A DNA stretch of 64,000 bases from Haliotis cracherodii (taxonomy: Eukaryota), in NCBI RefSeq assembly GCF_022045235.1, contig NW_027266264.1, positions 84,072,001-84,136,000 on the forward strand, in the 5' to 3' direction. The position numbers and the translations under genes are program-made. Under the pieces are notes generated by a model. That model was not told where the DNA came from, made no database searches, and worked only from the letters and a program-made list of their open reading frames with translations. Positions 122 through 25,103 of the stretch are shown here, piece by piece. The stretch's first letter is position 1, and each line of letters begins with the position of its first letter.

Positions 122-457
122 CATTTTCGTTATTATAGCAGAGGACACCAGCGCTCTGTCTAGAGCGTCCCGGTGGGGAGTTGCAGCCGAGGTCAACTTT
201 GTCGTCAAGGTCACTGAAAGGACAGCTGGTCAGATTAGTCTCTCCACCCTGACAGTTGAATTTTCCGACCAACATGGGAGTCGATGAGTAGATCTGCCCA
301 CTGAAAGTGACGCCACCAACAAAGCCCATAGAACGGCATGCAACGTCGGCGTCCTTATTGTTCCAGCCAACGTTGCAAACGGGTCCCCAGAATCCGTACC
401 TATTGACCTGAATGGAGCCATAGTCCCTGGAACTAGCTTGAAGACGGACAGCGGCGT
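122..457 (-). CDS. SRCR gene exon 20 (SRCR15)
   Basis: AAVRLQASSRDYG...WGPVCNVGW...AGVLCYNNEN; GTAAGA donor, so the gene continues off-window. Confidence 0.92.
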
Positions 458-1963
458 CTGGAAGATAAAGGAACGAGAGGTGTAACTGAAAGTGACCAGA
501 ACCTATAACACATGTAGCATGTAGCACCTCCTGCGTTCATGTTTCCACGTTAAATATAATGAATTTCCCTTAGTCTTGGTCTCCATTGTCTTATTATTTT
601 CACATTATTTGTTTTTTTCTGTTATGTTGGACAATTTCGGAATTAGTTTTGAAATAATACACTATGCATTCAAGAAAAAAGATACTGTCTTCACATTATA
701 AGTATAACTGGACCTGAAAGTGTCGCCGACCATAAAAAACACGTGTTCTGATGAGGAAATACATTAAAAAATTAATGACACATATAGACGCAATATCTGA
801 CAAACAAATCATGGTTATATGACAAACCATTTGCGAAGGTATAAATGAAGTGTATAGTTTGTACCGTTACGGCGTATGTTGTTGTAGGAGCAATAGACGG
901 TGGCGTATTTGCCGGTAGTGCAGGTGCCAAAAGCAAGGTTGCAGCTGAGAAGGTCCGACTCAGTGCCAGTGCAACCATTGACGGTGACGGTGATGGTGGA
1001 GGCGTCGACATCTCCCACTGCGTTACAGCACTGAGACTTGCCGTCGGTGTAGCCTAGTTTCCTGCATACAACGCGGGCAGCAGTGTTGTCGAAGTTGTGG
1101 TCGCAGACGGGGGACCATTGGTTGTTCCTGTACACTTCGACACGGCCGTAGTTGACGGTGGAGGATCCCATTACACGAACTGGGGAGAAGGCGAAAATCA
1201 TCTCAACCAATATACGTGAATATTCGGCTTGCTTGTGTTACTGTGTTCATGAAATACCGTGTTGTAAGCTAGATGTAAAGACTTCTTTACAGCAGTTTCA
1301 ACAGTCATTTCTGTTTTTATTTACTTTAATATTGTGTACTCACCGTTGTCAAAACACATGATAGCGTTATCCTTCTTGTGGTTAGAACAGCCGAAGTAGC
1401 TCTGCCTCCACTGAGACGCACACTCGGAGATAGATCTCTCCGTCCCTTTGCAGTTCAGACGGCTAAGATAGATCGTTCCACTTCCGGGGCCAAATGTTCC
1501 CAGACCCATGTGACGACCGGTGGTGTAGTTGAGCATGCGGCAGAGGACGTCGGCGTTTTTGTCCATGTACCACCCCGAGTATAGTGTACACATGGTACCC
1601 CAGGACCCGTCCACGCTCAGCTCAACCCGACCAGCAGACCCCGTCTTGTTTCCCAGGCGCACCTGTAGACCTTCAGGAAAATGAATGAGCACATTAGTGT
1701 TTGCGGTTCAAATCCGATAACCTCTCAGCTTAACAGTTCGGGAGCAGGCAAGCCAGTTGTTGGACATGGTATCTTCGCCTCAGGGGCGATGAAACACGGT
1801 CTGCCATTTGACAGGTGAAAATATCTCATACACATGGTAACTTCAGCAGTAGTTCAGTTCTATCAGGTGTGACAGTTTAATGTGGGAGGAAAACCCGAAG
1901 TAATGTATGCTATAAACGTTTAACATTTTCATGAAATGACCACGGCTTTGGTACCGCCAAACC

Positions 1964-2000
<37 letters not shown>

Positions 2001-5000
2001 GTTCATTTATATGGCGCTGTACTCCACTCGCTCGTCTGACATACATTGGTTTAGTATACGTTTTATTCATTTTCTGTGTATAATCATATGTACAGTAGAA
2101 CTTATTCCATTGCTTCCTTTCTCTTTTTATTTGATGTTTGGGGACACGGGTGGCCCAGTCGTCTTCAGTGCCATCGCTGTGCAGAGCTGCGTCCCTTGGG
2201 CACGCCAGAAACCTATGATTGTGGGTTCGAATCCCGGTTCGCCCCGATTAAGTTTCTAGGTTTGTCAGCACCATACCCGTGCTCGTGGGTTTCACCGAAG
2301 TGGTAAACGTCTGTGACCTGCATCACTTCTGGCTTTCCTCCCACATTAAGCTGACACGCCGCGATACTGGAATATTGTTCAAAGCGGCGTTAAACCCAAC
2401 TCAGGCACTCATTATTTCATGTGTAAACAGGTCACCATAACCCTTACATAAACTGGCCCATGGCATTAGATTCTGATGTCAATACCCACCACTAGTTTGG
2501 TAGCAGTAGACGGCGGCATCCCCTTGGGAAGAACAGTTGGCAGTGTCGCCGAACCGAACTCCAGCACAGTTAGAGAGGTAGGTTTCTGAGCCGTCACAGT
2601 TAATATTGGACAACCATCTCACTGTGGAAATGGTGTAGAAGGAGTAGTATCTGTTGTAGTAGGTGTAGGCGAAGCCCCCGGTGTATCCCTTTTCTCGGCA
2701 GATCACCATGGCCTCCCTGTCGTCGAAGCCGTCGGGGCAAATGTAGCCACTGATGCCCATGTGACCGATCGTGACGCGGCCCTGGTACGTGTTTTGTAGG
2801 GCGAGGGTGTACCCTGTAGGGAAACTCTTCTTGTGATTAACTTAGTAAGGCATGCAAACGGAACATTATATGTATTTAAAAGCAAGATAGTGTACTCTAA
2901 AGGTATTCTGTAAACGCTTGTTCACCATGACGCTATACACTCCTTGCGTCTACTTCTCTGTGATTTGGACACGTTGCTCTATGCTCTCCGCTTTTACCAA
3001 GGTGTTCAATGATCGATCTATGATTGTGACAGGAACCGCCACACCACCAGCTATTACCAATGTATTTGAGTCTCTCGTGGGTAGTTCTATCATTACCCTT
3101 GTTTTCTACACCAAAGAAGACCATTTCTGATGCCCACGTCACGATGTGACACAAATGTAAAGACAACAAAACTCTCCAAAATGAGACTGAATGAACGATG
3201 CATAAATATTATGTTTGAAGCCCGTTCTTACATACTCCAAGCGTTTTCATAACGTCAGAATTGTCAAAAACGATCAGATATGCTTTTTTCTCTTTATATC
3301 TACCTGATCGAGGGTTCGTGTTGGAGCAGACCGCCGAGGCATACTTCCTACTGGGACAATAGGTCATGCTGATGTCATGGGGGCAGTCTCTGAAGCGAGT
3401 CTCGCGGCCTGTGCAGCGGACGTTAGTGTAGCCAATACCGTAGTACTGTCTGCCGAAGGCGGAGGCACCGACACTGACGCCGTACAGGTAGCCAATCTGG
3501 TTGCACACAACTTTGGCGCTGATGTCGTTGAAGTTGTCTGCACATACCATCTGGTAGCTGCTGACGCCGTCGTACACCTGAACAGCCCCATACTGCCTGT
3601 TTGGTCGGAGGCGAACTGAGAAGTGAAAACAAGTTTTAAGTTCATTTCTACTGTTGGAGGTGATTCGTAAATTACTGACTTAAATACATTATAAACTGAA
3701 TTTTGGTCTTGCAAAAAAGGTGTAACCACTGACAACCATATCAAAATTAGTAACGCCACACTTGCTCACCTGGATATGTAGTCTAACAGTTTAATATGTC
3801 AAGACAGCCACTTCAGAAAAGTGTTCTCAGGCTGGATATTCAAATTTGTTCTGCATATATACTGAGAAAATATTAACTATAAAATCTAAGGATTTGAACA
3901 AAACATAGTGTCATCATAAGGACACGCACAGGCCCAAGTTCAGCTAGCTCAGTCTGACAACTTCAGAGAAAATCTCAGGGCCAGATATGCATTTTGAGAT
4001 CAAGATCAAAGTTTAAAATATCGCAAAAAAAAATGACCAGTAAACTACGGTTAAAACGAATTTAAAGGGACCACTAATTTTAGTTCGTTATAAACGTAGT
4101 TCGTTATAAACATATATACAACGTATGTTCAGCAAATGGTCGGGACAAAAAACACAGCTTGGTATATCCGTCAGTTCTTAAAAGCGTGTTCGTTATAAAC
4201 GTAGTTTACTGTATGTTGACTAACTACATATTCTACACGTTCACCATACCATTACATTTTGAAGAGCCAAAAATAGCTTTTTCAATACATCTGAAATATA
4301 CAAAAGCGTATTCGAACCTCATGAACATATTCAATCATTGATGGGGACAAGCAGAGGAGAAGATGTTTACAGTCCGAGGAAGTACATTTTATGAGATAAT
4401 TTAGTCATAAGGTTAAGTTGATCGAACAGACAGCAAATAATCAACATTAGGTTCTCAAATTTCGAGTAATGGTTCACTGCTAAAGTGTTTTCTGAGCATA
4501 TGTTGTTCACAGTGCAGGGAAAGCCATTTTGAGAGAATTTAGGAGCAAAGTCGATTTCAAAGGTGAAATCAAAATAAAAAATATCGAAAAAAAAGGAACA
4601 CATTTGTTGATCCCACTATTATATACACATGCAGCTAATGTCATTACATTTTTAAGAAATGGCTGATCTGGTAATGGCCAAAACGAGGTCTTTCAATAAC
4701 ATATTCCTCAAAACCAGCACGACAGCCATAATTATTGGCTTCAGTGCAAGGGAATTCATTTTGAGAGAATGTTTTAGCATGGTTGAAATGCAAAGGTCAA
4801 ATTATGTGAAATAAATTTAATATTGCCCATAATGGAACCTACGTGTTGAGCCCCAGGGCTAACTACACATAGGAGGGCGTTCATTATATTTTGAATCTTA
4901 ATGACAGAGTCATAGCAAAAGGAAGTTTCAGCTTTCAATATTGTTGAAGTGCAAAGGTCAAATCGGGCATCTGTTTTTAAATATCTGAAAAAAAACAGAA

Positions 5001-8000
5001 CATCTTTGTTGAGCCCCACTACTAACTACACGTGAATTATATTTTGGAAATACATGGCTGATTATTGGGCCAAACTGCCGTGGTGGCCATATTGAAACTC
5101 GGATTCAAACATCTTGAATAAATTTGGATGTCATCCTTCCGGCATTTTGGTCACGTGGGTTCTCAGGAGACTTTCAGTCACGTGAGCCAAGAACCTACAT
5201 GGTTCGGGTTTAGTTGCACCTTACAGACTTAGTACCATTTACTAGTTTGTTTGCAATTGCTGATATGACGCAAACCATGAGGTTTGGTTTGAGTCTCGAT
5301 CAGACAATCCAGTGATTGACACCATGAGCATCGATCCACGCAATTGGGGTACAATTACACGCACCAAGTCAGCTATCCCGTTAGTCGCCTTTTACGACAA
5401 GCATAATCGCCATTTACGGCAACTTGGGCTGCTGAAGACCTATTCTACCCCGGATCTTCACGGGTGCAAACCATGAGGTAACACACAAGTTAACACCAAG
5501 AAAATATTGAAATACAATAAAATATACAATATCTCAATACCTGAACTACACAGTTTTATTCACTGTGGGAATTCATGGTGGCTAACACCTGTAGTCGAGC
5601 ACAATATACATGCGTCATTATGGTGAGTATATGTGCACATACTCACCTAGACCAGAACACTGCACTCCAACGTCGTATCGGTGACCGTTGCAGGGGTAGC
5701 TGTTGGTGACATTGAACCTGCTGGATCGACAGTTCCATAGCGCCTTCTCTGTACCCGAGCACGTTGGAGAATACAACCACACGGGCCCAGTCCCTCTGCC
5801 GTAGGTGCTCGTGCTTTTACCGGAGCCATCAGGATAGCCCAGGGACTTGCACACCACGCGTGCGCTGCTGGAACTGAAGCTGTAAGCACAGACGCTGCCC
5901 CACACACCGCCGATCTGAACCTCGACGCGTCCAGCACTGTTGGATATTTGTCCGTTCTTTATCAGACGGAGGTTCACTCCTACCAAAGATGTAAAGGTGG
6001 AGGTCATGCAAGTGTTTTAGTAACGTGTAGGAATAGGAATATACCGATCGATACATATATAACTGCCATGCTATGTTGATGTTCCCTGTTCAGTTTACCT
6101 GTGTTGTCGTTGTAGCAGTAGACATATGCAGCCTTGTAATAGGACGAGGTGCAAGAATACGGAAGACGTGTAGAAACGGCGCAGTCCTGAAGCCTCGTCT
6201 CGTTACCGATACAGCTAGCCGCAAACAGGCGGGGAGGGGTGTTGTAGGCGTATCCCACAGGGCCAAACGCGACACCCGACACGTATCCCTTGGATCGGCA
6301 AACCACCCCAGCTTCCTCGTCTCCCCACCCGGTATTGCAGACAGTCGCATTCAACCCCATCTTCTGAATCCTCACCATAGATGGGAAGGTTGTGCCAAGC
6401 ACAACGTCAAAATCTGACAAAGGGAAAGTGCATGAAAAAGAATCATTTTCATATTCTCAAAAAGTTTAATTCCCTCACGTGTCAATATATGGTAGTAAGC
6501 TTCCATTATGTTACAATAAATATCCCTTCATACGTAGGCAATACGTCAAATGATATATAAAGCTGTGTGTTTATTTGCTTTTGAATATATTTGAATATAT
6601 ATCTAGCGTTGGAAAATGCTGACGTTTACACGATGAACCTTTTTCCAAATGACATAGGACCCTAACTCACCGTTGGTGACAGGTTGCTTAGAGCAGATGA
6701 CGCTGGCGTAATTGTTGTAGGGGTAGCTGTTGACGCAGCCGCCCACTCTGAAGCCGCAGTTGGCTACAGTGGTCTCTGAGCCGGTACAGTTCAAGTAGCT
6801 GATCGCGGCGGTATAATATTGAGTCCCAAACGTCCCCCTGGGAAGAGCAAAGCCATAAGGGTACCCCAGCTCCCTACACACGACTGTTGCATCGTAGTTG
6901 TCAAAGCCGCTGCCACAGATGATGCGCCAAGAGCTGTCTTTGTAGAACTGTACAATGCCAGTGGACGCATTTACATTCGTAGTGCCCCGTACAAGTTTCA
7001 CTGGGGATGGAAAATGGACATGAAGAAGATACATATATTTAATTATTATAATTATCACAGACATAACCTTGATACATTTTGGTCTGACATAGTTTTATCT
7101 CTATTGTATCATCAAAGTGACCTTCACCTGCTGTTACAAGTAGCAAGAATACAAATACACATAACTTAACATCTTATACATGCCTCCCATAAACCTTTCG
7201 CTGCATGACATGTCACAAGAAACTTATTTTAATATGGTTAATACTACAATGTAAGCACCATAAACATGATATTGGTACAATGTTCGAATTAACAGGGTTC
7301 GACCTTGTAAAGTTGTAAGGACTAGTGACCGCCCCCCTGGCCTGGTGGTAGAGCGTCCGCTCGGAGAGCAGAAGGTCGGGGGTTCCATTCCCGGCCGCGA
7401 AACAAGACGTGACCTCATCTTACCTATAAAGACTAGTCGTGTTCTACCATGATTTATTGTATTTGCTAACATTTTGTTATGCTCCAATCTCATAAAAAAT
7501 CAGGTCTTAGTCCTCGCTATCGCTAAACAAAGATCTGAGGACATCCCATTACGGGTCACGTCAGAACGACCTTTCATCCGACCAATCAAAGCGTGGCTTA
7601 CCAGATCATGAAAGCGACAGTCGTAATGTGTTTTCTAATCATGCAACCACCAAAACGTTAACAAGGGCTATTTCGAACAACAGTTACGACCGGTACGACT
7701 GATTCCGTCAAAATTATCGTCTGTCTCTCGCTTTTAAACATTTGAACGGAGGAGACGTTGCACAGTACGCGGGGAGCACTGCATTACAATCTCAAACATA
7801 TATTAGACATTCCGGAATGTTCGTTGTTCAGTTTTCAGAATTTTAATCGAGAACTGTGTCAACATATTTTTCAAGCGTAGTCTGAAATGGAAGTCACCGG
7901 ATTGAAACGAGTGCCCTAAAGCTCGAGAAAGCTGCTTTCTAATTGGCTGATGTCGACTTCCTGTTCGTCGTTTTAGTGGTCGGTCAAAGTTCGCGAAAAG

Positions 8001-11000
8001 TCGTTCTGACGTGACCCGTAATGGGATGGCCTAAGATCTTTGTTTAGCAGCAGCGAGAACTAAGATCTGATTTTTATGAGATTGGTTATCCTTATTCGTA
8101 CTTGCGCTGTATGCGCCGACCATTTCAGTGCCATGTATACTAGAATATCGAGAGTAGGCCCCAGTGGTTGATAGCAAAAGTTCCATACAGGCGGGTTAAA
8201 AGGCACACTGTCATGGCATATATTGTAAGCACCAATCCTCATGTGTAGGTATGACGTCACGCCTTGGATACTGGGCCGTGGAAAGTATCCCCCTGGTGAT
8301 ATATGTATATTGCGTAGGTTTGTGTTTTAATAGCATAATTGCACCTACCATTTCCGTAACATTGGACGCCCAGATCGTTGGCGTGATTCTGACATCTGGT
8401 CGTGGTTGCACCAAACTTATTATTGACACACTGGAATACGCTTGACTCAATCCCGTAACAGTAGGGATCAGATAAGTACACTTGTCCACTTCCAGGGCCA
8501 AACGAACTGGTAAAAAAATATTGTTAGGCTTTTATTCTAAAATAGCATCCTGCCAATGGTAAGAATGACTCAAATTAGAAACAGTATGTATACTATCAAT
8601 ATATCCACGTTCTAATGTCCTCAATATCTATCATATAATGGGGTTGTTTCTTTGTTTGTTGTTTACGCAATATTAAAGCTACATGACGGTTGTTTGTAAA
8701 TATTAATTTAGTCTTAACCAGACAATCAAGTGATTGACATCATGAGGATCGATCTACCAATTTGGATACGATGACAGGCATCATCCAAGTCAGCGATCCT
8801 GACCACCCGAATAATTCTAACCTGAATCTTCACGGGCAGGATAAAGCTGGTTAAAGCCGGATAAAGTCGGATAAAGCTAACGGGTAGAAACGTAGCCACG
8901 AGTGTAAAATCCTCTTCTTCCCCCGTCACGAGATGAGAGAAAAACGATATTTCACGAGTGACATGGAATATCCTTCTTATTATACACTTTTTTGTAGTTG
9001 TCTACCGGAAAACTAAATTATTTCAATACAAATGTAAAACCTTGATACACAGGTACGGTTCGCCACCCTTTGTATTTGTAACTAAAAAGTAGTTTTGTGT
9101 TTGCAAAATTATAAAAAAAATATAAACAAAAGTAACAAATAAATTCTAGGTCACGAAAATTCTGTATCATACATATACAAACGATTCTATACAAAATCAA
9201 CAAAAATATTCTTGAAAACTAGGACACCGCTGTTGGTAGCGAAAGAATACACGCTTGAATGAGAAATTTACAGTTTATAACGAAACATTTTCGAGAGAAA
9301 AACAAACGGCAAGAAGTGATATTAACTCCATAAATGACCATCTGTTATTATTTTGCATGTGGAATGTGGAACTAACGTAAAAAGAACGTCAACCGTTTGT
9401 GTTCGGGCTAGACACTTATGGTAAAGGGAGACAATTTAAGGGGACGTAACTCTTGATTGACAATAGTTCCGTCACACTGTTGTGTTCACTGCAGTGAAAT
9501 ATTAAGTGTTATATTCACTGCAGTGAAAATATCACTTTTCTCAACTTCAGAAGACTCGTTCTTTCATTTCTTTCCCACTGAAATATATACTAAACCACGC
9601 TTCGTTCTTCATTGATCTTTCCGATTTATCGCGTAGCTATCTTCTATATATATCAATACAGTAGCTCGCATCAATATTTCCTACATCACAAAATAGTCGT
9701 TCCTGTAAATATATCCTACATCACAATACAGTAGCCCCCGTCAATATATCCTGCATCATAATACAGTAGCCCCCGTCAATATATCCTGCATCACAATACA
9801 GTATCTCCAGTCAATATATCCTACATCACAATACAGTAGCTCCTGTCAATATATCCTGCATCATAATACAGTAGCCCCCGTCAATATATCCTGCATGACA
9901 ATACAGTAGCTCCTGTCAATATATCCTACATCACAATACAGTAGCTCCTGTCAATATATCCTGCATCACAATACAGTAGCTCCTGTCAATATATCCTGCA
10001 TCACAATACAGTAGCTCCTGTCAATATATCCTACATCACAATACAGTAGCTCCTGTCAATATATCCTGCATCACAATACAGTAGCTCCTGTCAATATATC
10101 CTGCATCACAATACAGTAGCTCCTGTCAATATATCCTGCATCACAATACAGTAGCCCCCGTCAATATATCCTGCATCACAATACAGTAGCTCCTGTCAAT
10201 ATATCCTGCATCACAATACAGTAGCTCCTGTCAATATATCCTGCATCACAATACAGTAGCTCCTGTCAATATATCCTGCATCACAATACAGTAGCTCCTG
10301 TCAATATATCCTACATCACAATACAGTAGCTCCTGTCAATATATCCTGCATCACAATACAGTAGCCCCCGTCAATATATCCTGCATCACAATACAGTAGC
10401 TCCTGTCAATATATCCTGCATCACAATACAGTAGCTCCTGTCAATATATCCTACATCACAATACAGTAGCTCCTGTCAATATATCTTACATCTCAATACA
10501 GTAGCTCCAGTCAATATATCCTGCATCACAATACAGTAGCTCCAGTCAATATATCGTACATCGCAATACAGTAGCTCCAGTCAATATATCCTTGATCTCA
10601 AGTCACTAATTACCGCCAATCCGAAAACCCCACCCACTTACCGTGAGGCAATACCGTCATTGAAGCCCAGTTGCCTACACACAGCTTGTGGGACGTACGG
10701 TGAACGATAACTGTAGCACACGGTGCCTCGCACGCCCTCGTAGATGATCTCTACCCTCCCTGACATCGCAGTTCCTCCAACCAGCTCCAAGCGGGTTGCT
10801 GTAGCGGATCAAGTATGTAACGTAGAGAACGAGATCATTAATACCACCATAACCTTCATGGGCATATTTTGTATGGATAATGGTGTGTGTGTGCGTTTGT
10901 GCGTGCGCGCGCGTATGTGTATTTGGGCAGGTCAATTATAAGAACGAGCTTGTTTTCTCAAATATAATGATTTAAATCTTCCAAATTTTCCAACAAAAAC

Positions 11001-11691
11001 GTTGCACCTTTTTTTTAAATGACTGATGAGTAATCATAAGATAATAATCTTCTCCAAATCAACGGAATAAAATGTGTGGAAAGGATAACGATTTGCCTTT
11101 CAGAAACATTTATTATGAAGTAAAAAAGGCCATTGTATTGATTTTAAAGTCCTCTACGTTCATGGTCTCTGTAGGGAAGTTGGAAGTCGTTCAACTCACG
11201 ATTGTTTCTGTAACACAAAACACCTGCGTCGAAACCAGCATAATTCCGAGATGTGCAGACCTCACTTCCGGTGGCACAATTAAACAGAGAGGTCTCGTTG
11301 CCGAAGCAGTTCACCTCGGACAACAGGAACGGTCCAAAAGCTCGTGTGTTGAACTGATAACTGACACCACCCGCCATTCCCAGTTGGCGGCAGACGACAC
11401 CAGCGTCTGTGTCATCCCAATTCACCTCGCAGACTCTCCCGGAAATTCCAGATTTTTTAACTGCGACGTGGCCCGTGACAGAACTATACTGGTCGGGACC
11501 GCCAGTGAGCTTGATAGAAGTGTCTGAAAGTTAAATAGGTTATGATGTCTGGGCAATTATTCATAAACACCTAGGAGTTCAAATGTACTGTCTTCGTATA
11601 TAGAATTAAAACATCAATTCAGAGAATAATTTGTGTCGATTATGTGCCGAACAGATTCCATTTGGCATAAACGTCCCTAAAAGGTGATGAA

Positions 11692-11729
<38 letters not shown>

Positions 11730-14700
11730 AAGAGAGAGAGAGAGAGAGAGAGAGAATGGTTGATAGTGCAGCGGGCATATGATGTCGATCCACGGCCCCC
11801 CTGATACGAGGGGCCAGACCTGGTCCGCAATGGTTATCATCTGTCATCTGCGGGATCACTCCACACCCTGATGCATCCTCCCCAAACAACAGACAGTGAT
11901 CGAACGTGCTCAGACCCACAGTGTCGTGGACATGTCCGCTTCCCGTGATGGGACCTTTTGATCCGAGGTCAGACGCCTTGTGAGCCTTGTCCATATGACC
12001 TAACCCCGACAGCAAGCTTACAAAGTACATATGTCACCTGATGACTCCAAGCCCCGCAACATAAGTATCGGCGTCGAGCTACAGTGACTGCTACGACACA
12101 TGGTCCGGCATGTTACACATCTTATCGTTGGCAATGTTGCAACCAATCAAGTCACCATCCTCAACAGACTGCATGCAAGTTGGTTACCCATTCCAAGTAT
12201 CTAAGCAGTCTCACACAAGAATGTACCACCCGAGAACAGAATCGTTTGGTTTCCGTTACTTACCTGTATTTAGAGTTCCATTGTAGCAGGAAACTGACGC
12301 ATATCCGGTATAGCCCTGGCGACTGCATGTCCCACTTCCTAACGTGCAATTCCTGATTGAGGCCTCGTTGCCAGTGCAGGTGATGTTGCTGCCTAAGTAG
12401 GTGGAGTAGTAGTAGGTACCATAGGATCCCCTTGGCAAGGCTCGGCCATTCTGGAAGCCTAGTTCTCGACAGACGACTTTTGCAGCCGTGTCATCAAAGC
12501 CAGTTCCACAAAGGGGTTGCCAGCTCGAGTACCTTCCAAACTGCCTCCAGATGAGGACTACACCGTGGCCATGATCTCCTCTGTATAATCTCACTGAAAA
12601 CGACGTGAAACTCACACTTAAAATGAATTTTTTTCAGAAGGAATGGGGGACATTTTCTTCATTAAAGTGTCCCTTTCTTCCCCATTCTTATGAAAATACT
12701 GAATCCGTGGTTTGATTGACTGGACATCCTAACAACCCAGAGCTACGTTCCGGCCCCTTTACAAATCTGTGTACAGTTGGTGCCTAAAACCGCTTGTGTT
12801 TAAAAAACAAAATATCAGGACCAAGTGACAAATGTCCTCACCTTTTCGCGTAGGTTGAAAACAGCTGTGTTGTATGTAAAAATAACAATGCGCTCACCAT
12901 TTGTCCAGCAACATGATGACGGCATGTACATAATCTGTATCAGACAAACCAGTGATTGATAGTATGAGCAACGTTCCGCGACGCATATATTAAAATATAA
13001 AGAGATTGGTGCTTAACCAATTTGTCCATGTGCATATTTCATGTATCAGACAAACAAGAGCGTTATCGTTATCCCCTTTGGTAAGGGTTAGTGAAAGGAT
13101 TTTGTTTAAGATTTATAATTTACATTCATTGAAGCAGGTGACTGAAGCGTCCTTCGAGTGGTCGACACAGGATGATGCAGGATTCCTCCAGCCTCGGTTA
13201 CGACAGGACCACAGTGTCTGTTCATATCCCCCACAATATAAACTATCCATAAAGATGGGACCGCTCCCTCTCCCGTAGTACGATCCTGTTTGAAAACAAA
13301 GCCAGGAATGCAAATGTTGTAGATATTTGTCAGTGAAAGTTATGATTACATTTCTTTAGAAAGAAAACAATTCTTTGGATCGGAGAGATAAAATTACAAC
13401 GGTGTAATATCTTGAATTATGTAATATCATTAAAGATGTAGCCTACCAGTCAGGTAGTTTCCGTCCTTGAAGCCTAACGTTTGGCAGACAACTCTTGCAT
13501 CCCCGTTCGTGAAGCTGTTGTCACAGACTGTGCCTGTCTCTCCGTCGAAGGTGATTTCCACTCGGCCGTGACTGGAATCTCCACCAGCAAGGCTGAGTTG
13601 TGGAGGACCTAGAACGACATGTATTAGAGATTAGAGTCCGTAAACCCGTCCCAATAATATCTTCCCAGAATTCGCACAGTTTAAATGTGCACGACAGCAA
13701 AAAGGAAATGATTTTTTACGACCATTTATATTTTTTCGCATGTATGATTGTGGCGCTGTTTATTATACAGTAGATATGTCAATAACATATATATTTTTAT
13801 TTATTGTAACGACCACGTTATGACCTTTCACCTTCACATAATCTTTGTAAAACTAACACTAAAGGTTGGACATCTCCCATGAAACGACACGTCCCGAAGC
13901 TAAGTAATTTTGTGTATGGAAGAGCCCAGCAATGATCTTGGAAAACTGGATCCCAGAATTTGATGTGATGTTTTTATCTAGACAGATTAAGTGAAGACAT
14001 CACTTCTACAGGTTTGTAATTGTAATGATGTTAGAAGGTACGTATGATGACACATGGCCATCTAATACAGCTTCGGCTGGACCAATTCGAAGAAGTGCAA
14101 GCATGGGTCTCTACTCTGTTAATAATGTCTTATTGGGAAGCTAAGTTCTATCTGTGTATATCAAGGTAGCGTTTTACTATTGCAGAAGGCTTAAAATCTA
14201 TACATCCGAGATTAAAAAAAGAAACTAAATCAACGGATAGGTACAGGAGAAACATTGATTGTTTAGAATACAATAGACACAAGATGAATAGGTGTCTTCA
14301 TACTTCGCCATTATCAAACTTTAATAACAAACATGACTCCCGTTTCACCAGTAGTTACATTTAGGTGACGGACGAAAATTATTTAATGTCTAAACCTACC
14401 GTTATTGTAACAGAGGACATTTGCAGGATTACAGTATCCTCTTGGTACACCCCAGACGGAGGACACACACTGGTCCTAACTAAACCTACCGTTATTGTAA
14501 CAGAGGACATTGGCAGGATAGCAGGAGCCTCTTGGTACACCCCAGACGGAGGACACACACTGGTCCAGGCTCGTCTCCTGGCCAGTACAGTTCACTGACG
14601 TGATCCACACAGGAAGGTCAGTCCTTGCGGATGTAGTGCCGAAGGTGACACCGCCTCTGAAGCCAAGCTGCTTGCACACCACGTTGGAGGCGTTGACGTT

Positions 14701-17700
14701 CCAGTTGCTGGCACAAATTTTACCCGCAACCCCGAGCTTTGTGACTTCAACTTGCCCTGACACGTCTGTGCCGTTTACAAGACGAAGGCTGAATCCTGTA
14801 ATTGAAGTGATTGGACCAATAGGCTCCCCTGGATATGCTTACACAAACAAACATCTGCATCGTCAACACACGACCATCCTCCATAATGATACAACCAGTT
14901 AAATATTGACACTGTGTTAAATGACGAGTAATATGCTTCCAAAGCGCATGTGACACATTTTAGTTATCATTCGCGACTCCAGATGAAAATTGCTGGTGCG
15001 GCATGTAATATAAACTCACTCACTATTACCATTCACAAAAGCTTTGGGCCTTATTGTTTGGGGGAAAATGTTTAGAAACGACAAAAAGTAGCCTTTCCTT
15101 CATCTTCCCGAGGCAAGAGCGTCCACTAGCCTTTCAATCTCATTAAAATCAGATCTTAGTTCTCGCTATCGCTAAACGAAGATCTGAGGACATCCCATTA
15201 CGGGTCACGTCAGAAGGACCTTTCATCCGACCAATCAAAGCGTCGATTAGCAGATCATAAAAGTGACAGTCGGAATGTGTTTTCTAATCATGCAACCTCC
15301 AAAACGTAAATACGGGGTAACGACAGTTACGCCCCGTACGACTAATTCCGTCAAAATTATTGTCTGTCTCTCGCTTCGTGGGTTAAACATTTGAACGGAG
15401 GAGGCGTTGCACAGTACCTGGGAAGCACTGCCTTACAATCGCAACCATATATTAGACATTCCGGAATGTTCGTTTGTTCAGTTTTCCAAATTTTAATCGA
15501 GAACTGTGTCAACCTATTTTTCAAGCGTAGTCTGAAATGGAAGTCGCCAGGTTGAAACGAGTGCCGTAAAGCTACAGAAAGCTGCATTCTAATTGGCTGA
15601 TATCGACTTCTTATGAGTCGTTTTAGTGGTCGGTCAAAGTTCGCGAAAGGTTGTTCTGACGTGACCTTAATGGGATGTCCTCAGATGTCCTCTTTGTTTA
15701 GAGGCAGCGAGAACTTAGATCTGATTTTAATGAGATTGCTAGCCTTTTTAGTAGGCTTTGATAAAGTCTAGTGGCCACTCTTTACACAGGTATACTAGGC
15801 ATTGAGGTATGAAGGAGCTAACAATACAGCGCTCGGCAACTAGGTGTTATCTTCTTTGCAGTCTACTAGATCTAGGTGAGACAATGATAAGCGCACTCTT
15901 ACCCATCTCAACTTCACCCTTCGGTTGAGAGTAGCAGATTGCTGACGCAAGTCGTTTATAACTGCAGTCTGTGTTACGCAGTTGATTTGTGCAGTTGAAG
16001 ATGCTAGCTTCGTTCCCAGAACAGTTAAAGTTCGTCCTTGAGCGCCTTGTGTACAGGTATGGATTACGGGTGTAGGGGCTGAGTTGACTGCAACACAGAG
16101 CTGACCCATCCCGGTAGCCCAGAGACCTGATGATATAAATAAAGTTTCCGTGACAATTGATTGGCTAACCGAGCAGTTTCATTCATAAACCGAAAACATA
16201 GGCTAAGTTCACCGACTACTTTTTCCTGATTGGCTGATAATATAACAGGCGGAGCTTTTGCTGTAATACTGCGCTGACTGTATCACTGATCGCGTGCTTT
16301 TGTCCACAGTTGTTGAGTGTTAATGGTTAAATAATCAGTCTGTGAAGTTATTAGTGCTGACGTATTTATTTTTCTAAAATGACGTTAATGAAATTCCGTT
16401 TATGGAGTTGTAAACAAACACACCGATGTGCTAATTTGCGTAAATCCGCAAAAATATTGAAGTTAAATTCTTGACCAAACAGATTACCATACATACAGCC
16501 AGTTATGGGGGTACACTGACCTGATTCCTGTGATAGGGAGACTAGCTTGTAGTGTTACCTGAATCATTTTCTACCAATTGGTCCTGAATCTACTGTATGG
16601 ATGAATCTCCATCTGTACCTTGATGTTTCACATGTGTCTTTCCTGGTGTTGTGTATCGGGAGCCAGAGATGCCCACTAACAGGCTATCACTAAGTTAATT
16701 TAACTCGAGATGGGAAACATTACCACCACACGGGCTCATGATCTCCATGTTAACGCCACATCTGGTGACCCAAGACACATGATGAGGTGAGGTGAGGTGA
16801 GGTGAGGTGAGGTGAGGTGAAATGGGGTTTAACGTCGCGTCCAAGATTATTGCACTTATAGAGCGACGTTCATGTACGTGTGTGTGTTTGTGTGGCTGCT
16901 TGTACTAGTCCGGACTGATGCTGATTTATAGTGCTAGCTCACTGAGATACCATGCCGCAGTTTAACATGAATATCTCACTCAGACACAGTATACTGACTC
17001 CGAGCCGACCAGTCCTTGTTTTAGCCCCTCAATGGCGAGCGCCAGACAGGGTAACAGGGTAACAACAAGTACCATCTTCAACCAACGTCTTTTGGTATGA
17101 CACGGCCGGGGATCGAACCCGGACCTTCCGCTCTCCGGGCGGACGCTCTACCACTAGACCACGGAGGCGGTCCCAAGACACATGGATGTCAACGTCTGAG
17201 TACAAACGTTTCAAGCCTACTTCGTGCACCTTCATCAGGCTACTCCAACAAATCGAGCAGTGTAACATTCACCTGGTATAAGATGCAATAAAAAGCCTTG
17301 AAATTTTATGTATAAAGAATAAACACTTTCAGATTCATATATCCTAGGTCTCTTTGAACCACATGCTAAATGTCTATCAAAGACGTCTGGTGAGTAACGG
17401 TTGTTAGATACCAAATACCTGCACAAAACCTGGGCATCTCTGTCGTCCCAGCTAGAGTCGCACACTGGTTTCCAGCCGGTCGGATCTCGGTATTGCACAG
17501 CACCAAACGATGTGGAAGGCGCTCTGTACCCGGAGACTAGCGTGTTGCCAACCAAACGGACTGCAAAGTAAATATTCAGGCATAAGTGGCTACATTTTCC
17601 TTTCAATTAACACACATGTTACGCATGTTCGGTGATGTTCAGATGTACTAGCTATGTATGTCTTTGGGTCAGACACCCAATATGTTTCTAGGACTGTCAG

Positions 17701-20700
17701 TACCATTCCCGTGCACTTAAGTGGTAAACGTCTGAGACTTCGGGTTTTTCTCCCACATTAACCTGATGTAACTGAAATTCTGTTAAACCGAACTCACTCA
17801 CTCACAAAGAAGATGCAAATTATGAAAACGACTCTTTAATTATTCCAAGCAAGACCCGTAAAAAAACGTTTTAGTGTTCAATATGTAACAAGACATTGTC
17901 CGATCATCTATACTGCGTGTATGTGTTACATAAACAACTCTGTCTGGGCCCACTTGCACAAAGCGATCGTAGCGCTACGACTATTGTAAGCCTATGTTAA
18001 AGTATGGTAGTTACGATCATCTTAGCGCTAAGATCCCTTTGTGCAAGTGGGCCCTGTTGTTTATTGCTGCACAATATTCAAGCTAAAAGACGGCGGTCTG
18101 AAAATAATCGAGTCTGGACCAGACAATCCAGTGATTGACATCATGAGCATCGAACTCATTTGGGATACGATGACATGCATCAACCAACTCAGTAAGACTG
18201 CCCACCCGATCCCGTTAGCCGCCTCTTACGACAAGCGTGGGTTACTGAAGACCAATTCTACCTCGGATCTTCACGGGGGACAAGCGTGGGTAGCTGAAGC
18301 CCATTTTTAACCCGGATCTTCACGGAAAAGCAACACCCCTGCAAAACGTTAAGGTTATATTGGAATGTATAGTGTTGAAACTCACAGTTATCGTTGGAAC
18401 AAGACACCCCAGCATCTCTGTTATGGCTACGACAGTTGTGATTGGCCCAGCCAGCATACGGACATGAGGCGAGCGTGTTCTCATTGCCTGTACAATGTAC
18501 GTTGTCCATGTAGATCATGCCGCTCCCGCCGCCGTAGTTATAGAGGGCCTTTTGAAAAGCGATAATTGCAAACAGTCATGTGTAGATTGTATATGTCAAG
18601 GTTCCCAATCAATATTGTTTTGAAATCAAATAGAACATGAATATGCCAATGAAAATAGGTGACCCTTTTGGCACATCTTATTCCTCCATTTAATATTGGG
18701 TGAAGTTTGAACAAGTGTGTTGCTCAGTGATGGTGAGGAACTGTCAAGCAATTGGTATTTCTTTTCACGATAGAAACTAGAATGCGTGCATCGCCAGTAC
18801 CTCATAAGCGCGCCTGCCCTACGTTTGATGAAGGAACACATGTCAGTACCTCACGACAGTGTATGCCCTACGCTTCATGAAGGAATTTATGTCAGTACCT
18901 CACGACCGTGTATGGTCTACGTTTGATGAAGGAATTTATGTCAGCACTTCACGACCGTGTACGCCCTACGTTTGATGAAGGAACGTATGACAGTACCTCA
19001 CGACTGTGTACGCCCTACGTTTGATGAAGGAACGTATGACAGTACCTCACGACTGTGTACGCCCTACGTTTGATGAAGGAACACATGTCAGTACCTCATG
19101 ACCGTGTACGCCCTACGTTTGATGAAGGAACGTATGTCAGTACCTCATGACCGTGTACGCCCTACGTTTGATGAAGGAACGCATGTCAGTACCTCATGAC
19201 CGTGTACGCCCTACGTTTGATGAAGGAACGTATGACAATACCTCACAACCGTGTACGCCCTACGTTTGATTAAGGAACACATGACAGTACCTCACGACCG
19301 TGTACACCCTACGTTTGATGAAGGAACGCATGTCAGTACCTCACGACCGTGTACGCCTTACGTTTGATGAAGGAACGTATGTCAGTACCTCATGACCGTG
19401 TATGCCCTACGCTTCATGAAGGAATTTATGTCAGTACCTCACGACCGTGTATGCCTTACGTTTGATGAAGGAAGGCATGTCAGTACCTCATGACCGTGTA
19501 CGCCCTCTACGTTTGATGAAGGAAGTTATGTCAGTACCTCTCGAGCGTGTATGCCCTACGTTTGATGAAGGACGTGCATGCCGGTGTGTGTGTGTGTGAC
19601 TGCTTGTACTTGTCCGGACTGATGCCGATTTATAGTGCTTGCTCTATACCATGCCGCCGTTTAACATGAATACCCCACTCAGACACAATATACTGACACC
19701 GAGCCGACCAGTCCTTGTTTTAGCCCCTTAATGCGGAGCGCCAGACAGGGTAACAACAAGTACCATTTTTTAACGTCTTTTGGTATGACGCGGCCAGGGA
19801 TCGAACCCTGGGCCTTCCGCTCTCCGGGCGGACGCTCCACCACTAGACCACGGAGGGGGTCAAGATCAATATGTAAAGCTCAGACATTAAATAACTCAAA
19901 GTTACACCACACTTTTCGCTTCATAAAATCGAGTGGTTCAGATATCTTCACTGTCGCATGTATTTTAGTTTTCAACTATTTTCAGTAAGAAGATGTTGTG
20001 AATTTAGATCCAAAACTCGGGTCAAACATCTCATTTGTTTATATATTAATTTACATACCGTCCCCCAGCGGTAGCCCAGCATTCGACAGGTGACAGTAGC
20101 ATCTTTGTTCCCCCAGTAATCGGAACACACAGTTCCCCATGGCGCTGTCGCGTTGTTTCTGACCTCCACTCTACCATAGGTCGCAGAAGTGCCAACAATC
20201 CGGACTAAAATCGCTGAAATAAGAATTTAAGAAGTGGCATCAGGTTACTACATTCATTGGGACCATGGGTGGCCCAGTCGTCGACGTCCCCGCAGCTCGT
20301 GGTTCCAGGAGCCAGGGGTCGTGGGTTCGAATCCAAGATTCGTCCTTAATATGGTCCGGCGTTCGTCAGCTCCGTGCTCGTGGGTTTCACCTCCGGGTAG
20401 ACGTGCAGGGTATACAACACTGTGGACTTTCTTAGCCTAGTGGTTAAAGCGTTCGCTCTTCACGCCGAAGACCCGGGTTTGATTCCCCACAGTGGTACAA
20501 TGTGTGAAGCCCATTTCTGGTCTCCCCCAGTGATATTGCTGGAATATTGCTAAAAGAGGCTTAAAACCAGACTCACTCACTCACTCACTCACTCACTCAC
20601 TCCGCCATTATGCTGACGCATTGTACAGCTTGTGTTAGAGGCAGACATGTTTTCGGTCACTACTTCAAAAGTACTTACACAAAAAAAGTATGGCCTTTTC

Positions 20701-23700: not shown

Positions 23701-24357
23701 GGAGGGGCGTGGCTCGGGATTTACACAATCACTCAGATTACAGTGAGTGAGTGAGTGAGTAAATTGGGTTTAACGACGCTTTGAATAATATTCCAGTTAT
23801 ATCACGACGTGTCAACTTTATTTCGGACGAAATCTGAAGTGATGCAGGTCTCAGAGGTTTACCACTTTAATGAAATCTACGGTGGTAACAGGACGATGGT
23901 AACTGGTTAACTGGGTGGACAGGACGGTGATAACTAGTTAACTGGATGGACAGGGCGGTGGTAACTAGTTAACTGGATGGACAGGGCGGTGGTAACTAGT
24001 TAACTGGGTGGACAGGACGGTGATAACTAGTTAACTGGATGGACAGGGCGGTGGTAACTAGTTAACTGGATGGACAGGGCGGTGGTAACTAGTTAACTGG
24101 GTGGACAGGACGGTGATAACTAGTTAACTGGATGGACAGGGCGGTGGTAACTGGTTCACGGCGTGAGCATACAGATGCATATATAGACATGGTTACTGTA
24201 TATCTAAATGCATATATCCTGCTCGTTTGAAAGATTTTACAAACACATAACAACGCGATTCTTATTGAACTGTAAAAGTGGACTTACTGCTTGGTCGTTG
24301 TGCGTTAACACTGACCACAATGGCCAGTGCTAGGACCAGACTGAGATGGTGGTCCAT
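122..24357 (-). CDS. Multi-SRCR (scavenger receptor cysteine-rich) DMBT1-like secreted/surface protein; signal peptide + >=15 SRCR domains; 3' end lies beyond the left edge
   Basis: 20 exons, all GT-AG with consistent phases: 24357-24288, 20213-20059, 18548-18386, 17560-17419, 16126-15903, 14795-14490, 13608-13447, 13285-13124, 12593-12264, 11523-11200, 10798-10642, 8506-8349, 7000-6671, 6413-6099, 5979-5647, 3615-3304, 2813-2490, 1670-1344, 1179-865, 457-122 (4945 nt, no stop). Repeated GRVEV..W..VC..A.VVC..LG..C.G.E..L..C..C..A.V.C SRCR signature. Orthology to DMBT1 is not established. Confidence 0.93.
865..1179 (-). CDS. SRCR gene exon 19 (SRCR14)
   Basis: RVMGSSTVNYGRVEVYRNNQWSPVC...YATVYCSYNNIR; donor ambiguous (exon end 865 or 871, both phase 1). 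Confidence 0.88.
1344..1670 (-). CDS. SRCR gene exon 18 (SRCR13)
   Basis: LQVRLGNKTGSAGRVELSVDGSWGTMC...HKKDNAIMCFDN. Confidence 0.92.
2139..2410 (+). mobile_element. SINE family D
   Basis: Matches the copy at 43399. Confidence 0.82.
2490..2813 (-). CDS. SRCR gene exon 17 (SRCR12)
   Basis: YTLALQNTYQGRVTI...GYICPDGFDDREAMVIC...AAVYCYQTS. Confidence 0.92.
3304..3615 (-). CDS. SRCR gene exon 16 (SRCR11)
   Basis: RLRPNRQYGAVQV...MVCADNFNDISAKVVC...YASAVCSNTNPRS. Confidence 0.92.
4038..4211. mobile_element. Tc1/pogo-like MITE (CAGT termini)
   Basis: CAGTAAACTACGGTTAAAACGAA...TTCGTTATAAACGTAGTTTACTG followed by TA; diverged inverted copy at 38322-38485. Confidence 0.7.
5284..5465 (-). mobile_element. 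SINE family B
   Basis: 14-bp TSD GCAAACCATGAGGT at 5270-5283 and 5466-5479. Confidence 0.82.
5647..5979 (-). CDS. SRCR gene exon 15 (SRCR10)
   Basis: VNLRLIKNG...GRVEVQIGGVWGSVC...HRYDVGVQCSGL. Confidence 0.92.
6099..6413 (-). CDS. SRCR gene exon 14 (SRCR9)
   Basis: FDVVLG...ATVCNTGWGDEEAGVVC...AAYVYCYNDNT. Confidence 0.92.
6671..7000 (-). CDS. SRCR gene exon 13 (SRCR8)
   Basis: KLVRGTTNV...WRIICGSGFDNYDATVVC...YASVICSKQPVTN. Confidence 0.92.
7485..8084. mobile_element. Second copy of the same Mutator-like MITE
   Basis: Same TIRs and interior as 15135-15738; degenerate TSD GTTATGCTC/GTTATCCTT. Confidence 0.85.
8349..8506 (-). CDS. SRCR gene exon 12 (SRCR7 C-half)
   Basis: SFGPGSGQVYLSDPYCYGIESSVFQC...HANDLGVQCYGN. 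Confidence 0.9.
9640..10600. repeat. 35-bp minisatellite, about 27 copies
   Basis: ATATCCTGCATCACAATACAGTAGCTCCTGTCAAT. Confidence 0.95.
10642..10798 (-). CDS. SRCR gene exon 11 (SRCR7 N-half)
   Basis: TRLELVGGTAMSGRVEIIYEGVRGTVC...AVCRQLGFNDGIAS; phase-2 GTAAGT donor. Confidence 0.88.
11200..11523 (-). CDS. SRCR gene exon 10 (SRCR6)
   Basis: TSIKLTGGPDQ...SGRVCEVNWDDTDAGVVC...AGVLCYRNN. Confidence 0.92.
11692..11754. repeat. (GA)n microsatellite
   Basis: Seen directly. Confidence 0.9.
12264..12593 (-). CDS. SRCR gene exon 9 (SRCR5)
   Basis: RLYRGDHGHG...WQPLCGTGFDDTAAKVVC...YASVSCYNGTLNT. Confidence 0.92.
13124..13285 (-). CDS. SRCR gene exon 8 (SRCR4 C-half)
   Basis: SYYGRGSGPIFMDSLYCGGYEQTLWSC...HSKDASVTCFNE. 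Confidence 0.9.
13447..13608 (-). CDS. SRCR gene exon 7 (SRCR4 N-half)
   Basis: PPQLSLAGGDSSHGRVEITFDGETGTVCDNSF...VVCQTLGFKDGNYLT. Confidence 0.9.
14490..14795 (-). CDS. SRCR gene exon 6 (SRCR3)
   Basis: FSLRLVNGTDVSGQVEV...ANVLCYNN; phase 1-1. Confidence 0.92.
15135..15738. mobile_element. MITE with ~90-bp TIRs and 9-bp TSD (Mutator-like)
   Basis: CAATCTCATTAAAATCAGATCT...AGATCTGATTTTAATGAGATTG; TSD CTAGCCTTT at 15126-15134 and 15739-15747. Confidence 0.88.
15903..16126 (-). CDS. SRCR gene exon 5 (SRCR2 C-half)
   Basis: SLGYRDGSALCCSQ...FNCSGNEASIFNC...LASAICYSQPKGEVEM; this frame is not in the ORF track; CAG acceptor, GTAAGA donor. Confidence 0.88.
16782..17172 (-). mobile_element. tRNA-derived SINE family C (other copies 19572-19861 -, 28363-28703 -, 37722-37877 + partial, 33094-33235 - degenerate)
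   Basis: A box TGGTCTAGTGG, B box GGTTCGATCC, (CACCT)n tail, TSD CCCAAGACACATG. Confidence 0.85.
17419..17560 (-). CDS. SRCR gene exon 4 (SRCR2 N-half)
   Basis: RLVGNTLV...GWKPVCDSSWDDRDAQVLCR; phase-2 donor. Confidence 0.9.
17947..18053. mobile_element. Small palindromic MITE with CTG TSD (PIF/Harbinger-like)
   Basis: TIR GGCCCACTTGCACAAAG / CTTTGTGCAAGTGGGCC, flanked by CTG on both sides. Confidence 0.75.
18056..18325 (-). mobile_element. SINE family B with duplicated head
   Basis: Core as above; GGATCTTCACGG occurs twice. Confidence 0.8.
18386..18548 (-). CDS. SRCR gene exon 3 (SRCR1 C-half)
   Basis: ALYNYGGGSGMIYMDNVHCTGNE...HNRDAGVSCSNDN; AAG acceptor, GTGAGT donor. Confidence 0.9.
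18816..19572. repeat. 49-bp minisatellite, about 15 copies
   Basis: TACGTTTGATGAAGGAACGTATGTCAGTACCTCACGACCGTGTACGCCC. Confidence 0.95.
19572..19861 (-). mobile_element. SINE family C abutting the 49-bp minisatellite
   Basis: Matches the copy at 16782. Confidence 0.8.
20059..20213 (-). CDS. SRCR gene exon 2 (SRCR1 N-half)
   Basis: TILVRIVGTSATYGRVEVRNNATAPWGTVCSDYW...CRMLGYRWGT; CAG acceptor, GTATGT donor. Confidence 0.92.
20433..20602 (+). mobile_element. SINE family A, directly after a family D head (20259-20400)
   Basis: Same body and (TCAC)n tail. Confidence 0.82.
20780..21097 (+). mobile_element. SINE family B with duplicated tail
   Basis: TSD TAGTGTCTAG; reverse complement of the other B copies. 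Confidence 0.82.
21537..21866. repeat. 10-bp tandem repeat, about 33 copies
   Basis: GTCGGGAGGT/GTCGAGAGGT/GTCGGGAGAT/GTCGGGAAGT. Confidence 0.95.
22020..23190. repeat. 41-bp minisatellite, about 28 copies
   Basis: GACGTGCATGGGTTAACTGGATATTGACAAAGTATATGGTA. Confidence 0.95.
23885..24156. repeat. 31-bp minisatellite, about 8 copies
   Basis: GGTAACTAGTTAACTGGATGGACAGGGCGGT. Confidence 0.92.
24288..24357 (-). CDS. SRCR gene exon 1: start codon and signal peptide
   Basis: MDHHLSLVLALAIVVSVNAQRPS: hydrophobic core and VNA-Q cleavage-like site. Donor GTAAGT, phase 1, joins exon 2 in frame. Confidence 0.85.
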
Positions 24358-24468
24358 CTCAGACAAGATGTACACTCCGGCCGGCGGTCACCTCTTACCG
24401 TAATAGACCAGGTCTGACTGACTGCGAAGGTGAGTGTGAATTTATCGCATGCAACATACGCCCCCTAA

Positions 24469-24474
24469 TTTATA
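24469..24474 (-). promoter_or_regulatory. Candidate TATA box for the SRCR gene
   Basis: TATAAA on the minus strand about 110 nt upstream of ATG 24357; position only, no transcript evidence. Confidence 0.35.
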
Positions 24475-24829
24475 ATCCTCTTCTAATTTCTGGTATCATC
24501 GTGTGTGAAACACCGATGTGCCAGACCATCCTCAGTAAGTCACATGTCAAAGGTTTTGTCATCTAAGTTTCATAATGCACGAGTATCGATGTCCACAGGT
24601 TGATTTCATTTACTACTAATCGAATTAAGTGATCTCGCAGTTATTACCCGATACCCACGAGTCGGACATTGGTAAATATAACATAAGCAATAGAGGAGCC
24701 ACGTGTAGTTGGATTCGGTTGAAAACACATATAACCGATGTATTTCGGTGTGCGGAGCTTCAACATTGCCGCTGTACAGTAGAGGCGCATATAAGAGGTG
24801 CGGTGTGCGGAGCTTCATCATTACTGCTT

Positions 24830-25103
24830 TTTATTTGTTTGTTTTGTTTGTTGTTTAACACCGCACTCAGCAATATTCCAGCTATAAGACGGCAATCTTT
24901 AAATAATCGAGTCTGGACCAGACAATCCAGTGACTGACGTCATGAGCATCGATCCACGCGATTGGGATACGATGAGATGCGTCACCCGAGTCAGCGGGCT
25001 TGACCATCCGATCCCGTTAGTCGACTCTTACGACAAGCATAGTCGCCTTTTACAGCACGCATGGGTTGCTGAAGACCTGCCCCACCCCGGATCTTCACGG
25101 GTC
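24830..25103 (-). mobile_element. SINE family B
   Basis: Full-length match to the copy at 56950. Confidence 0.82.

Follow-up and report, generated by a model that had tools for sequence, protein, structure and literature searches.

A three-class SRCR array in abalone belongs to a 26-domain membrane protein kept in molluscs, nemerteans and an annelid

What kind of protein is built when SRCR (scavenger receptor cysteine-rich) domains of three classes follow one another in strict rotation? The question is raised by a stretch of 64,000 nucleotides of the genome of the abalone Haliotis cracherodii (assembly GCF_022045235.1, contig NW_027266264.1, positions 84,072,001 to 84,136,000; hereafter the window), the minus strand of which contains, at 20213..122, 19 exons encoding 15 SRCR domains, stop-free when spliced. 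The first-pass annotation of this sequence described the array as five copies of an X-Y-Z unit, an ancient SRCR trimer that possibly also folds as one piece, and as part of a distinct invertebrate receptor or mucus protein.

The period-three order of the 15 domains is strict, as was claimed. The mean identity of domains of the same class is 33.7% (30 pairs), whereas that of the other 75 pairs is 28.9%, and only one of 200,000 permutations equalled this gap. On a phylogenetic tree of the 15 domains, each of X, Y and Z is set apart from the rest by a single, moderately supported branch (82/86, 84/81 and 77/80), so that three period-three classes are recovered and not clusters of neighbours or random ones; none of 200 label shuffles was as clustered. 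Profiles constructed from domains 1–15 only assigned domains 16–25, which lie outside the window, to X, Y, Z, X, Y, Z, X, Y, Z and X, that is, all ten as predicted by the period, with a narrow call for domain 16 (81 vs 78 bits). The leave-one-out assignment was correct for 25 of 25 domains, and domain 26 is a canonical SRCR. When all 26 domains are placed on the tree, the support for Z falls to 66/52. All end motifs and coordinates quoted in the annotation are present, and the FD/FN motif said to occur in most Y domains is found in four of the five. The pairwise identity of the 15 domains is 20–44%, and the copies are indeed highly diverged, unlike those of DMBT1.

The class signatures are the canonical G-R-V-E, W-G-T and H-x-x-D for X, Y-A-S-V ahead of the final cysteine together with a shortened last loop for Y, and G-x-A-Y following the helix for Z. 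X is the default class of any ordinary SRCR, and Y and Z are derived.

The gene runs on beyond the window. The adjoining 200 kb carries 11 more SRCR domains, giving 26 in total; 13 further exons (contig positions 84071388 to 84057209) encode SRCR16–26, a stalk, a membrane helix and a tail with an NPxY motif. A signal-peptide exon, missing from the annotation, is located upstream of the array (24357-24288). The complete gene model has 33 exons and encodes a type I protein of 2,989 residues: a signal peptide, eight XYZ blocks, a further X domain, one canonical SRCR, a short stalk, the membrane helix and the NPxY tail. Thus, the period proposed from the window stands, and the count of five blocks is replaced by eight plus two domains. 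In the last exon, the Thr-rich stalk is followed by the helix, then by a basic stop and ~75 tail residues that include the sequence NPNY. Neither CUB, ZP nor Ser/Thr spacer exons were found in the gene model, in accordance with the spacer-free structure noted earlier; the exons join directly and the linkers are mostly 3–12 residues long. Of the C-terminal ends considered in the annotation, the transmembrane one was recovered from the adjacent DNA, and the ZP and CUB ones were not.

Conservation across phyla

Relatives were collected from the best 120–150 matches of each of three protein searches and one representative search, plus one cluster look-up, giving 384 proteins; the counts include isoforms and alleles. 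Among the proteins listed, at least 80 have two or more XYZ blocks, at least 56 have three or more, and at least 28 carry 26 domains with at least six XYZ blocks. The 26-domain form occurs in gastropods (Patella, Babylonia, Littorina, Nucella, Gigantopelta), bivalves (Pecten, Mizuhopecten, Mytilus, Saccostrea, Ruditapes, Mercenaria, Mya, Dreissena) and cephalopods (Octopus, Argonauta). The periodicity that the annotation proposed to look for in mollusc proteomes extends beyond them, to the nemerteans Tubulanus and Lineus and the annelid Dimorphilus. The common ancestor of molluscs, ribbon worms and annelids lived more than 500 million years ago. The closest relatives among the matches listed are Haliotis asinina fragments (81–93% identity per domain).

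Position and class statistics were obtained for 27 proteins selected for having 26 domains in this order. The expected class was found in 640 of 648 domains at positions 1–24. For 561 of 702 domains the best match is the abalone domain of the same number; this holds for 23–26 of the 26 positions in gastropods and for 11–13 in worms. Six cysteines per domain, the group A pattern, are present in 209 of 216 X domains, 206 of 215 Z domains and all 27 copies of domain 26. The Y domains contain either six (107 of 216) or eight (108 of 216) cysteines, and seven just once; the extra two lie next to each other and are distinct from the pair that marks group B. Apparently, this Cys-Cys pair is gained and lost together, and it likely bonds to itself. 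Linker lengths are periodic too: the X-to-Y linker has three residues in 98 of 129 junctions, and the medians are nine for Y-to-Z and seven for Z-to-X, as measured by a rough motif rule that misreads some junctions.

Other lengths occur as well: some relatives have 27 or 29 domains, many models are partial, and bivalves also carry a shorter form of 15–16 domains, the first of which is of class Y and the last part X or XY. Two groups of paralogs exist in molluscs, one with a short stalk, to which this gene belongs, and one with a long stalk and an FxNPLY motif; across members the stalk ranges from about 14 to 158 residues. A distant paralog of the long-stalk group is located 30 Mb away on the plus strand (contig 53950393-53993155); it has 27 domains in the same order with an extra canonical domain in front, and shares with this gene the split exons at domains 1, 7 and 17.

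No array of three or more XYZ blocks was found among deuterostome, cnidarian, sponge or placozoan proteins in the best 120–150 matches per search, and no brachiopod, phoronid or flatworm protein was seen among the named matches listed. One sponge protein scored two XYZ blocks on weak labels; it mostly matches domain 26, was considered noise and was excluded from the covariation analysis. A search with a single Z exon found only one unrelated oyster protein, and an atlas search returned only generic SRCR clusters. A tie between the number of blocks and that of the units in gastropod haemocyanin, also eight, was dropped, since bivalves, cephalopods, nemerteans and the annelid also have eight blocks.

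Like the SRCR genes that have expanded in sponge, sea urchin and oyster, this gene combines a group A array with a signal peptide, membrane helix, tail and tandem copies. Those expansions are lineage-specific and fast-changing, whereas the family described here has retained its number of domains, their order and their positional identity in Mollusca, Nemertea and Annelida. The available text of a survey of 29 invertebrate species (PMC10855680) notes one- and two-domain duplication units in sponge and mentions no conserved three-domain family. Invertebrate SRCR arrays are usually regarded as fast-changing, lineage-specific immune expansions and are grouped as DMBT1-like; in contrast, 26 domains kept in order across three phyla suggest that the protein has a core function and a single, definite shape in three dimensions. 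The family is a new, deeply conserved architecture inside the SRCR superfamily. Its description was not found in the open literature, with subscription journals mostly outside the coverage; the available parts of PMC7333891, PMC7736800 and PMC8614816 concern other or unspecified SRCR proteins. In practical terms, the X, Y and Z profiles separate the family from mis-named DMBT1-like genes.

Several features of relatives were noted in passing. The Lineus member has a precomputed kringle match (PF00051), and the short oyster form carries a cysteine-rich N-terminal extension ahead of its first SRCR. A second mollusc family, represented by 12 proteins of bivalves, gastropods and a chiton, has a steady 17 canonical SRCR domains together with LDL-receptor class B and sushi matches. 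Two proteins, one of them from the brittle star Amphiura, show a period-two class pattern (xYxY..., XyXy...).

Folding unit and duplicated unit

The AlphaFold2 model of X19-Y20-Z21, calculated for an H. asinina protein with 44 sequences, has a mean predicted local distance difference test score (pLDDT) of 90.2 and a predicted template modelling score (pTM) of 0.87. The 12-residue Y-Z linker is well modelled, in a pLDDT block of about 95. By our estimate, the score would be much lower if the three domains were free. X, Y and Z are predicted to pack into one compact unit. The individual modelled domains resemble solved SRCRs (Z scores 15.8–18.8). When the XYZ model is superimposed on two- and three-domain pieces of CD163, CD6, CD5L, Pit54 and LOXL2, the root-mean-square deviation (rmsd) is 9–16 Å, as compared to about 2 Å for single domains; this would be a new mode of SRCR packing. 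The idea of the trimer as a folding unit is thus upheld, by prediction.

Covariation was analysed in two runs, with 358 and 348 pooled windows and mostly common data, and plausible within-domain contacts were recovered. At z>5, X-Z pairs within XYZ were found two and four times in the two runs, against none between Y and the next X and one between the previous Z and Y, which weakly favours XYZ as the unit.

The history of the array is a separate matter. In a tree with outgroups, based on a short alignment and with low support, domain 1 is placed beside domain 26 and ordinary SRCRs, and X4–X25 form a group of their own. Since domain 1 groups with domain 26, the history may be read as a cap, eight YZX units and a second cap. 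Because of this grouping, and because the short bivalve forms start at Y and end at X or XY, YZX would fit the duplication history as well as XYZ. The claim of an ancient SRCR trimer stands as an ancient three-domain repeat, the duplicated unit of which may be XYZ or YZX. The folding unit and the historical unit may simply differ in phase.

Could the period be a mere record of the duplication of a three-exon cassette, perhaps YZX between canonical caps, with domains that fold and act separately? The inter-domain introns are all in phase 1, which allows the duplication of any block without a frame shift; setting domain 1 beside domain 26 leaves exactly eight YZX units between them; and the short forms start and stop within XYZ. 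Against separate domains stand the pTM of the XYZ model, an X-Y linker of three residues retained in three phyla and class signatures kept although identity goes down to 33–53%. We consider this explanation quite unlikely. A multi-domain cassette is repeated in WC1 (a-b-c-d-e-d-b-c-d-e-d'), and cassettes are also found in CD163, according to the part of PMC2906472 available; WC1 is thus a precedent for supermodules of SRCRs.

Calcium site, cytoplasmic tail and function

The acidic triad of the canonical calcium site (SALSA site 2: D1019, D1020, E1086) was mapped by cysteine spacing and by alignment of domain 26 with CD163 domains. Across the 27 members, the full D-D-E triad is present in domain 1 of 14 and domain 26 of 20, in domains 19 and 22 once each, and in none of the other 22 domains. 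In the available text of PMC7043408, DMBT1/SALSA binds microbial ligands through the cation site, and the dual site is said to be conserved across SRCRs; the array is a counter-example to this proposed generality. The membrane helix is present in all 27 full-length members, and sequence motifs of the NPxY/F and FxNPxY/F types occur in the tails of 23 and 11, respectively. FxNPxY is an uptake signal of the LDL-receptor type. NPxY counts as a classical signal for uptake, as described for another scavenger receptor in the accessible text of PMC4493455.

Taken together, these data are best explained by a single-pass protein of 26 SRCR domains in fixed order that is likely an endocytic scavenger receptor similar to CD163, with predicted rigid blocks as a scaffold, calcium switches at the ends and clathrin-mediated uptake by the tail; we assign a probability of roughly 0.58 to this reading. 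The eight rigid, calcium-free blocks would form a scaffold of set shape and a binding surface, and the canonical end domains would carry out the calcium-dependent work. Domain 26 would cluster receptors like SRCR9 in CD163, while domain 1 would help to grip cargo. The NPxY tail would recruit clathrin adaptors, low endosomal calcium would free the cargo, and the receptor would recycle. Judging by topology and tail motif, ligand binding and internalisation, the functions of a scavenger receptor, may be expected. If so, farmed abalone, oysters, scallops and clams have in this protein a candidate receptor for uptake.

A bolder version is tentative, and we hold it less likely than not. It would make the proteins a family of giant endocytic receptors in Lophotrochozoa that corresponds to CD163 or megalin. 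In this family, 24 SRCRs would have given up binding through calcium and turned into rigid three-domain blocks with a geometry unlike that of any solved SRCR array; eight such blocks would lie between two calcium-binding caps, and their overall size would have stayed constant from the common ancestor of molluscs, ribbon worms and annelids onward because it fits a single large cargo of ancient origin. Megalin/LRP2, cubilin and the cation-independent mannose 6-phosphate receptor also have very large ectodomains with a fixed module count; FxNPxY signals occur in the LDL-receptor family, and a three-domain unit is described for the mannose 6-phosphate receptor. However, these proteins consist of unrelated domain types, and the comparison is only an analogy.

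The closest known counterparts are CD163 (M130) and CD163L1/WC1, which are likewise type I proteins with tandem SRCRs only and a short tail with an uptake signal, here a motif recognised by sequence. They differ in that the abalone protein has 26 domains, a period of three, the group A pattern of six cysteines and the triad only at the ends; its tail motif is NPxY, whereas theirs is YxxPhi; and the C1-C4 pair of group B, as given in the available text of PMC2906472, is missing, there being no cysteine at those columns. As in CD163, the canonical triad is found in the membrane-proximal domain. According to the available text of PMC12279954, the acidic triad in SRCR9 of CD163 brings about oligomers that depend on calcium, increase uptake and are thought to dissociate in endosomes; of this feature, and of the haemoglobin-haptoglobin uptake of the CD163/WC1 family, only the triad of domain 26 is seen in the abalone sequence.

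Several observations weigh against the receptor with rigid blocks. The domain 1 of this gene itself lacks two of the three acidic residues, and that of its tandem paralog lacks one. NPxY is missing in Tubulanus, Dimorphilus, one Patella vulgata protein and one Gigantopelta copy, and this motif serves signalling adaptors too. The shorter bivalve relatives stop mid-block and have no domain 26. As for rigidity, the pTM of 0.87 was obtained for the XYZ phase alone and so is no sign of a greater rigidity than that of YZX, ZXY or an ordinary SRCR triplet. The pTM of a nine-domain model (0.53, 13 sequences) exceeds the value that we estimate for one rigid block, which suggests that the block-to-block joints may be ordered as well. 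Only X44-Y72 and X44-Z45 are inter-domain pairs with z>5 in both covariation runs; the top pair of the first run did not recur, and Y-Z pairs dropped from four to none.

A second set of proposals, not all mutually exclusive with the endocytic receptor, concerns what the array does. The resemblance to DMBT1/SALSA/gp340, namely a long SRCR array, a common database name and the same fold (domain 26 model, Z score 18.8, rmsd 1.6), brings to mind a secreted mucus or shell-matrix protein. Many members are named DMBT1-like in databases, a different membrane SRCR protein is reported from limpet mucus in the available part of PMC7333891, and shedding is possible. Unlike DMBT1, the abalone protein is membrane-anchored, its domains are diverged, and CUB, ZP and Ser/Thr spacers are absent; the dual cation site of PMC7043408, as far as described in the text available, is missing from domains 2–25, site 3 being judged from alignment columns only. 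With an anchor in every full-length member and an NPxY tail, the mucus-protein option of the annotation, together with the ZP or CUB end, falls away, and its receptor architecture is retained; for the full-length form the secreted role is largely refuted and highly improbable.

Another proposal draws in part on the tandem copy directly downstream, which is intact and lies on the minus strand (contig 84042752-84013378). It has all 33 exons and is 93.6% identical to this gene; most exons are 95–99.7% identical, whereas exons 3, 4, 5, 11, 12 and 14 are only 80–90% identical, and this patchwork suggests gene conversion plus local divergence. In some of the divergent exons, amino-acid changes outnumber silent ones (13 vs 3 in exon 3). 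Such a concentration of differences in few exons would suit a receptor that senses or phagocytoses microbes in haemocytes or the gut epithelium; its array would bind microbial surfaces, and its tail would trigger engulfment or signalling. SRCR genes taken together, not this gene specifically, peak in digestive tissues of nine invertebrates according to the available text of PMC10855680. However, the domain number and order fixed across three phyla are unlike the lineage-specific expansions in the same text, and the cation site by which DMBT1 binds microbial ligands, as described in the part of PMC7043408 available, is gone from 24 of the 26 domains. We regard this role as unlikely.

The loss of ligand sites in the middle domains, the constant domain count, which suggests a measured length, and the presence of 1–2 N-glycosylation sequons per domain would also suit a protein with a structural role as a spacer, in adhesion or as a filter, shaped as a rod of constant length linking membranes, cilia or microvilli, with a tail tied to adaptors. 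A stalk that varies more than tenfold in length is, on the other hand, a poor fit for a ruler, and the LDL-receptor type uptake signal in 11 of the 27 tails argues against it as well; such a structural function is quite unlikely.

Exon coordinates and neighbouring features

All exons of the gene are on the minus strand, and the 19 between 20213 and 122 all have AG..GT borders. Exon 1 (24288..24357) contains the start codon and the signal peptide in 23 codons and has a 97% identical counterpart in the tandem paralog. SRCR1 (X, or cap) is split between 20059..20213 and 18386..18548, and SRCR2 (Y) between 17419..17560 and 15903..16126, the latter half carrying the adjacent Cys-Cys pair. For SRCR3 (Z; 14490..14795), the acceptor at 14795 was chosen over 14828/14837, because the paralog has an AG at the 14795 site and none at the 14828 site. 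The halves of SRCR4 (X) are at 13447..13608 and 13124..13285. SRCR5 (Y) and SRCR6 (Z) occupy 12264..12593 and 11200..11523, and SRCR7 (X) is split again (10642..10798 and 8349..8506). The remaining domains in the window are encoded by single exons: SRCR8 (Y) at 6671..7000, SRCR9 (Z) at 6099..6413, SRCR10 (X) at 5647..5979, SRCR11 (Y) at 3304..3615, SRCR12 (Z) at 2490..2813, SRCR13 (X) at 1344..1670, SRCR14 (Y, with the Cys-Cys pair) at 865..1179 and SRCR15 (Z) at 122..457. Pfam SRCR (PF00530) matched all 11 single-exon domains tested, among them SRCR5, SRCR6 and SRCR8–14.

Exon joints were checked against contigs from sequencing runs of related organisms, presumed to be RNA, which bear on the joints and not on tissue or level. 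SRCR8–14 are covered by these contigs. The joints 457/865, 1668/2488 and 5978/6098 were found in four of four runs and 1177/1344 in two of four; 16124/17417, which connects the halves of SRCR2, was bridged in three of four. At the checked borders, the contigs contain no spacer exon between joined SRCR exons.

Two tandem repeats lie at exon ends. At window positions 14390-14566, the end of the SRCR3 exon, including its splice donor, is duplicated in a 90-bp unit; read-through to the second donor hits a stop, and the second copy resembles the version of the paralog. The last intron contains a 54-bp repeat (contig 84058194-84057581), also found in the tandem copy, each unit of which has a splice acceptor and is open in frame; use of an upstream acceptor would insert 18-residue hydrophobic repeats before the stalk. 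Intron minisatellites are located at 9654-10592 (period 35), 18816-19572 (49), 21533-27053 (10/41/31/59), 45602-47318 (27/32/65) and 57672-59186 (33), and the long open frames inside these arrays look like repeats, not genes. On the plus strand, from window position 30214 onward, lies the first coding exon of MAU2, a cohesin loader (Pfam Cohesin_load); this gene and the SRCR gene are arranged head to head, the two start codons being ~5.9 kb apart.

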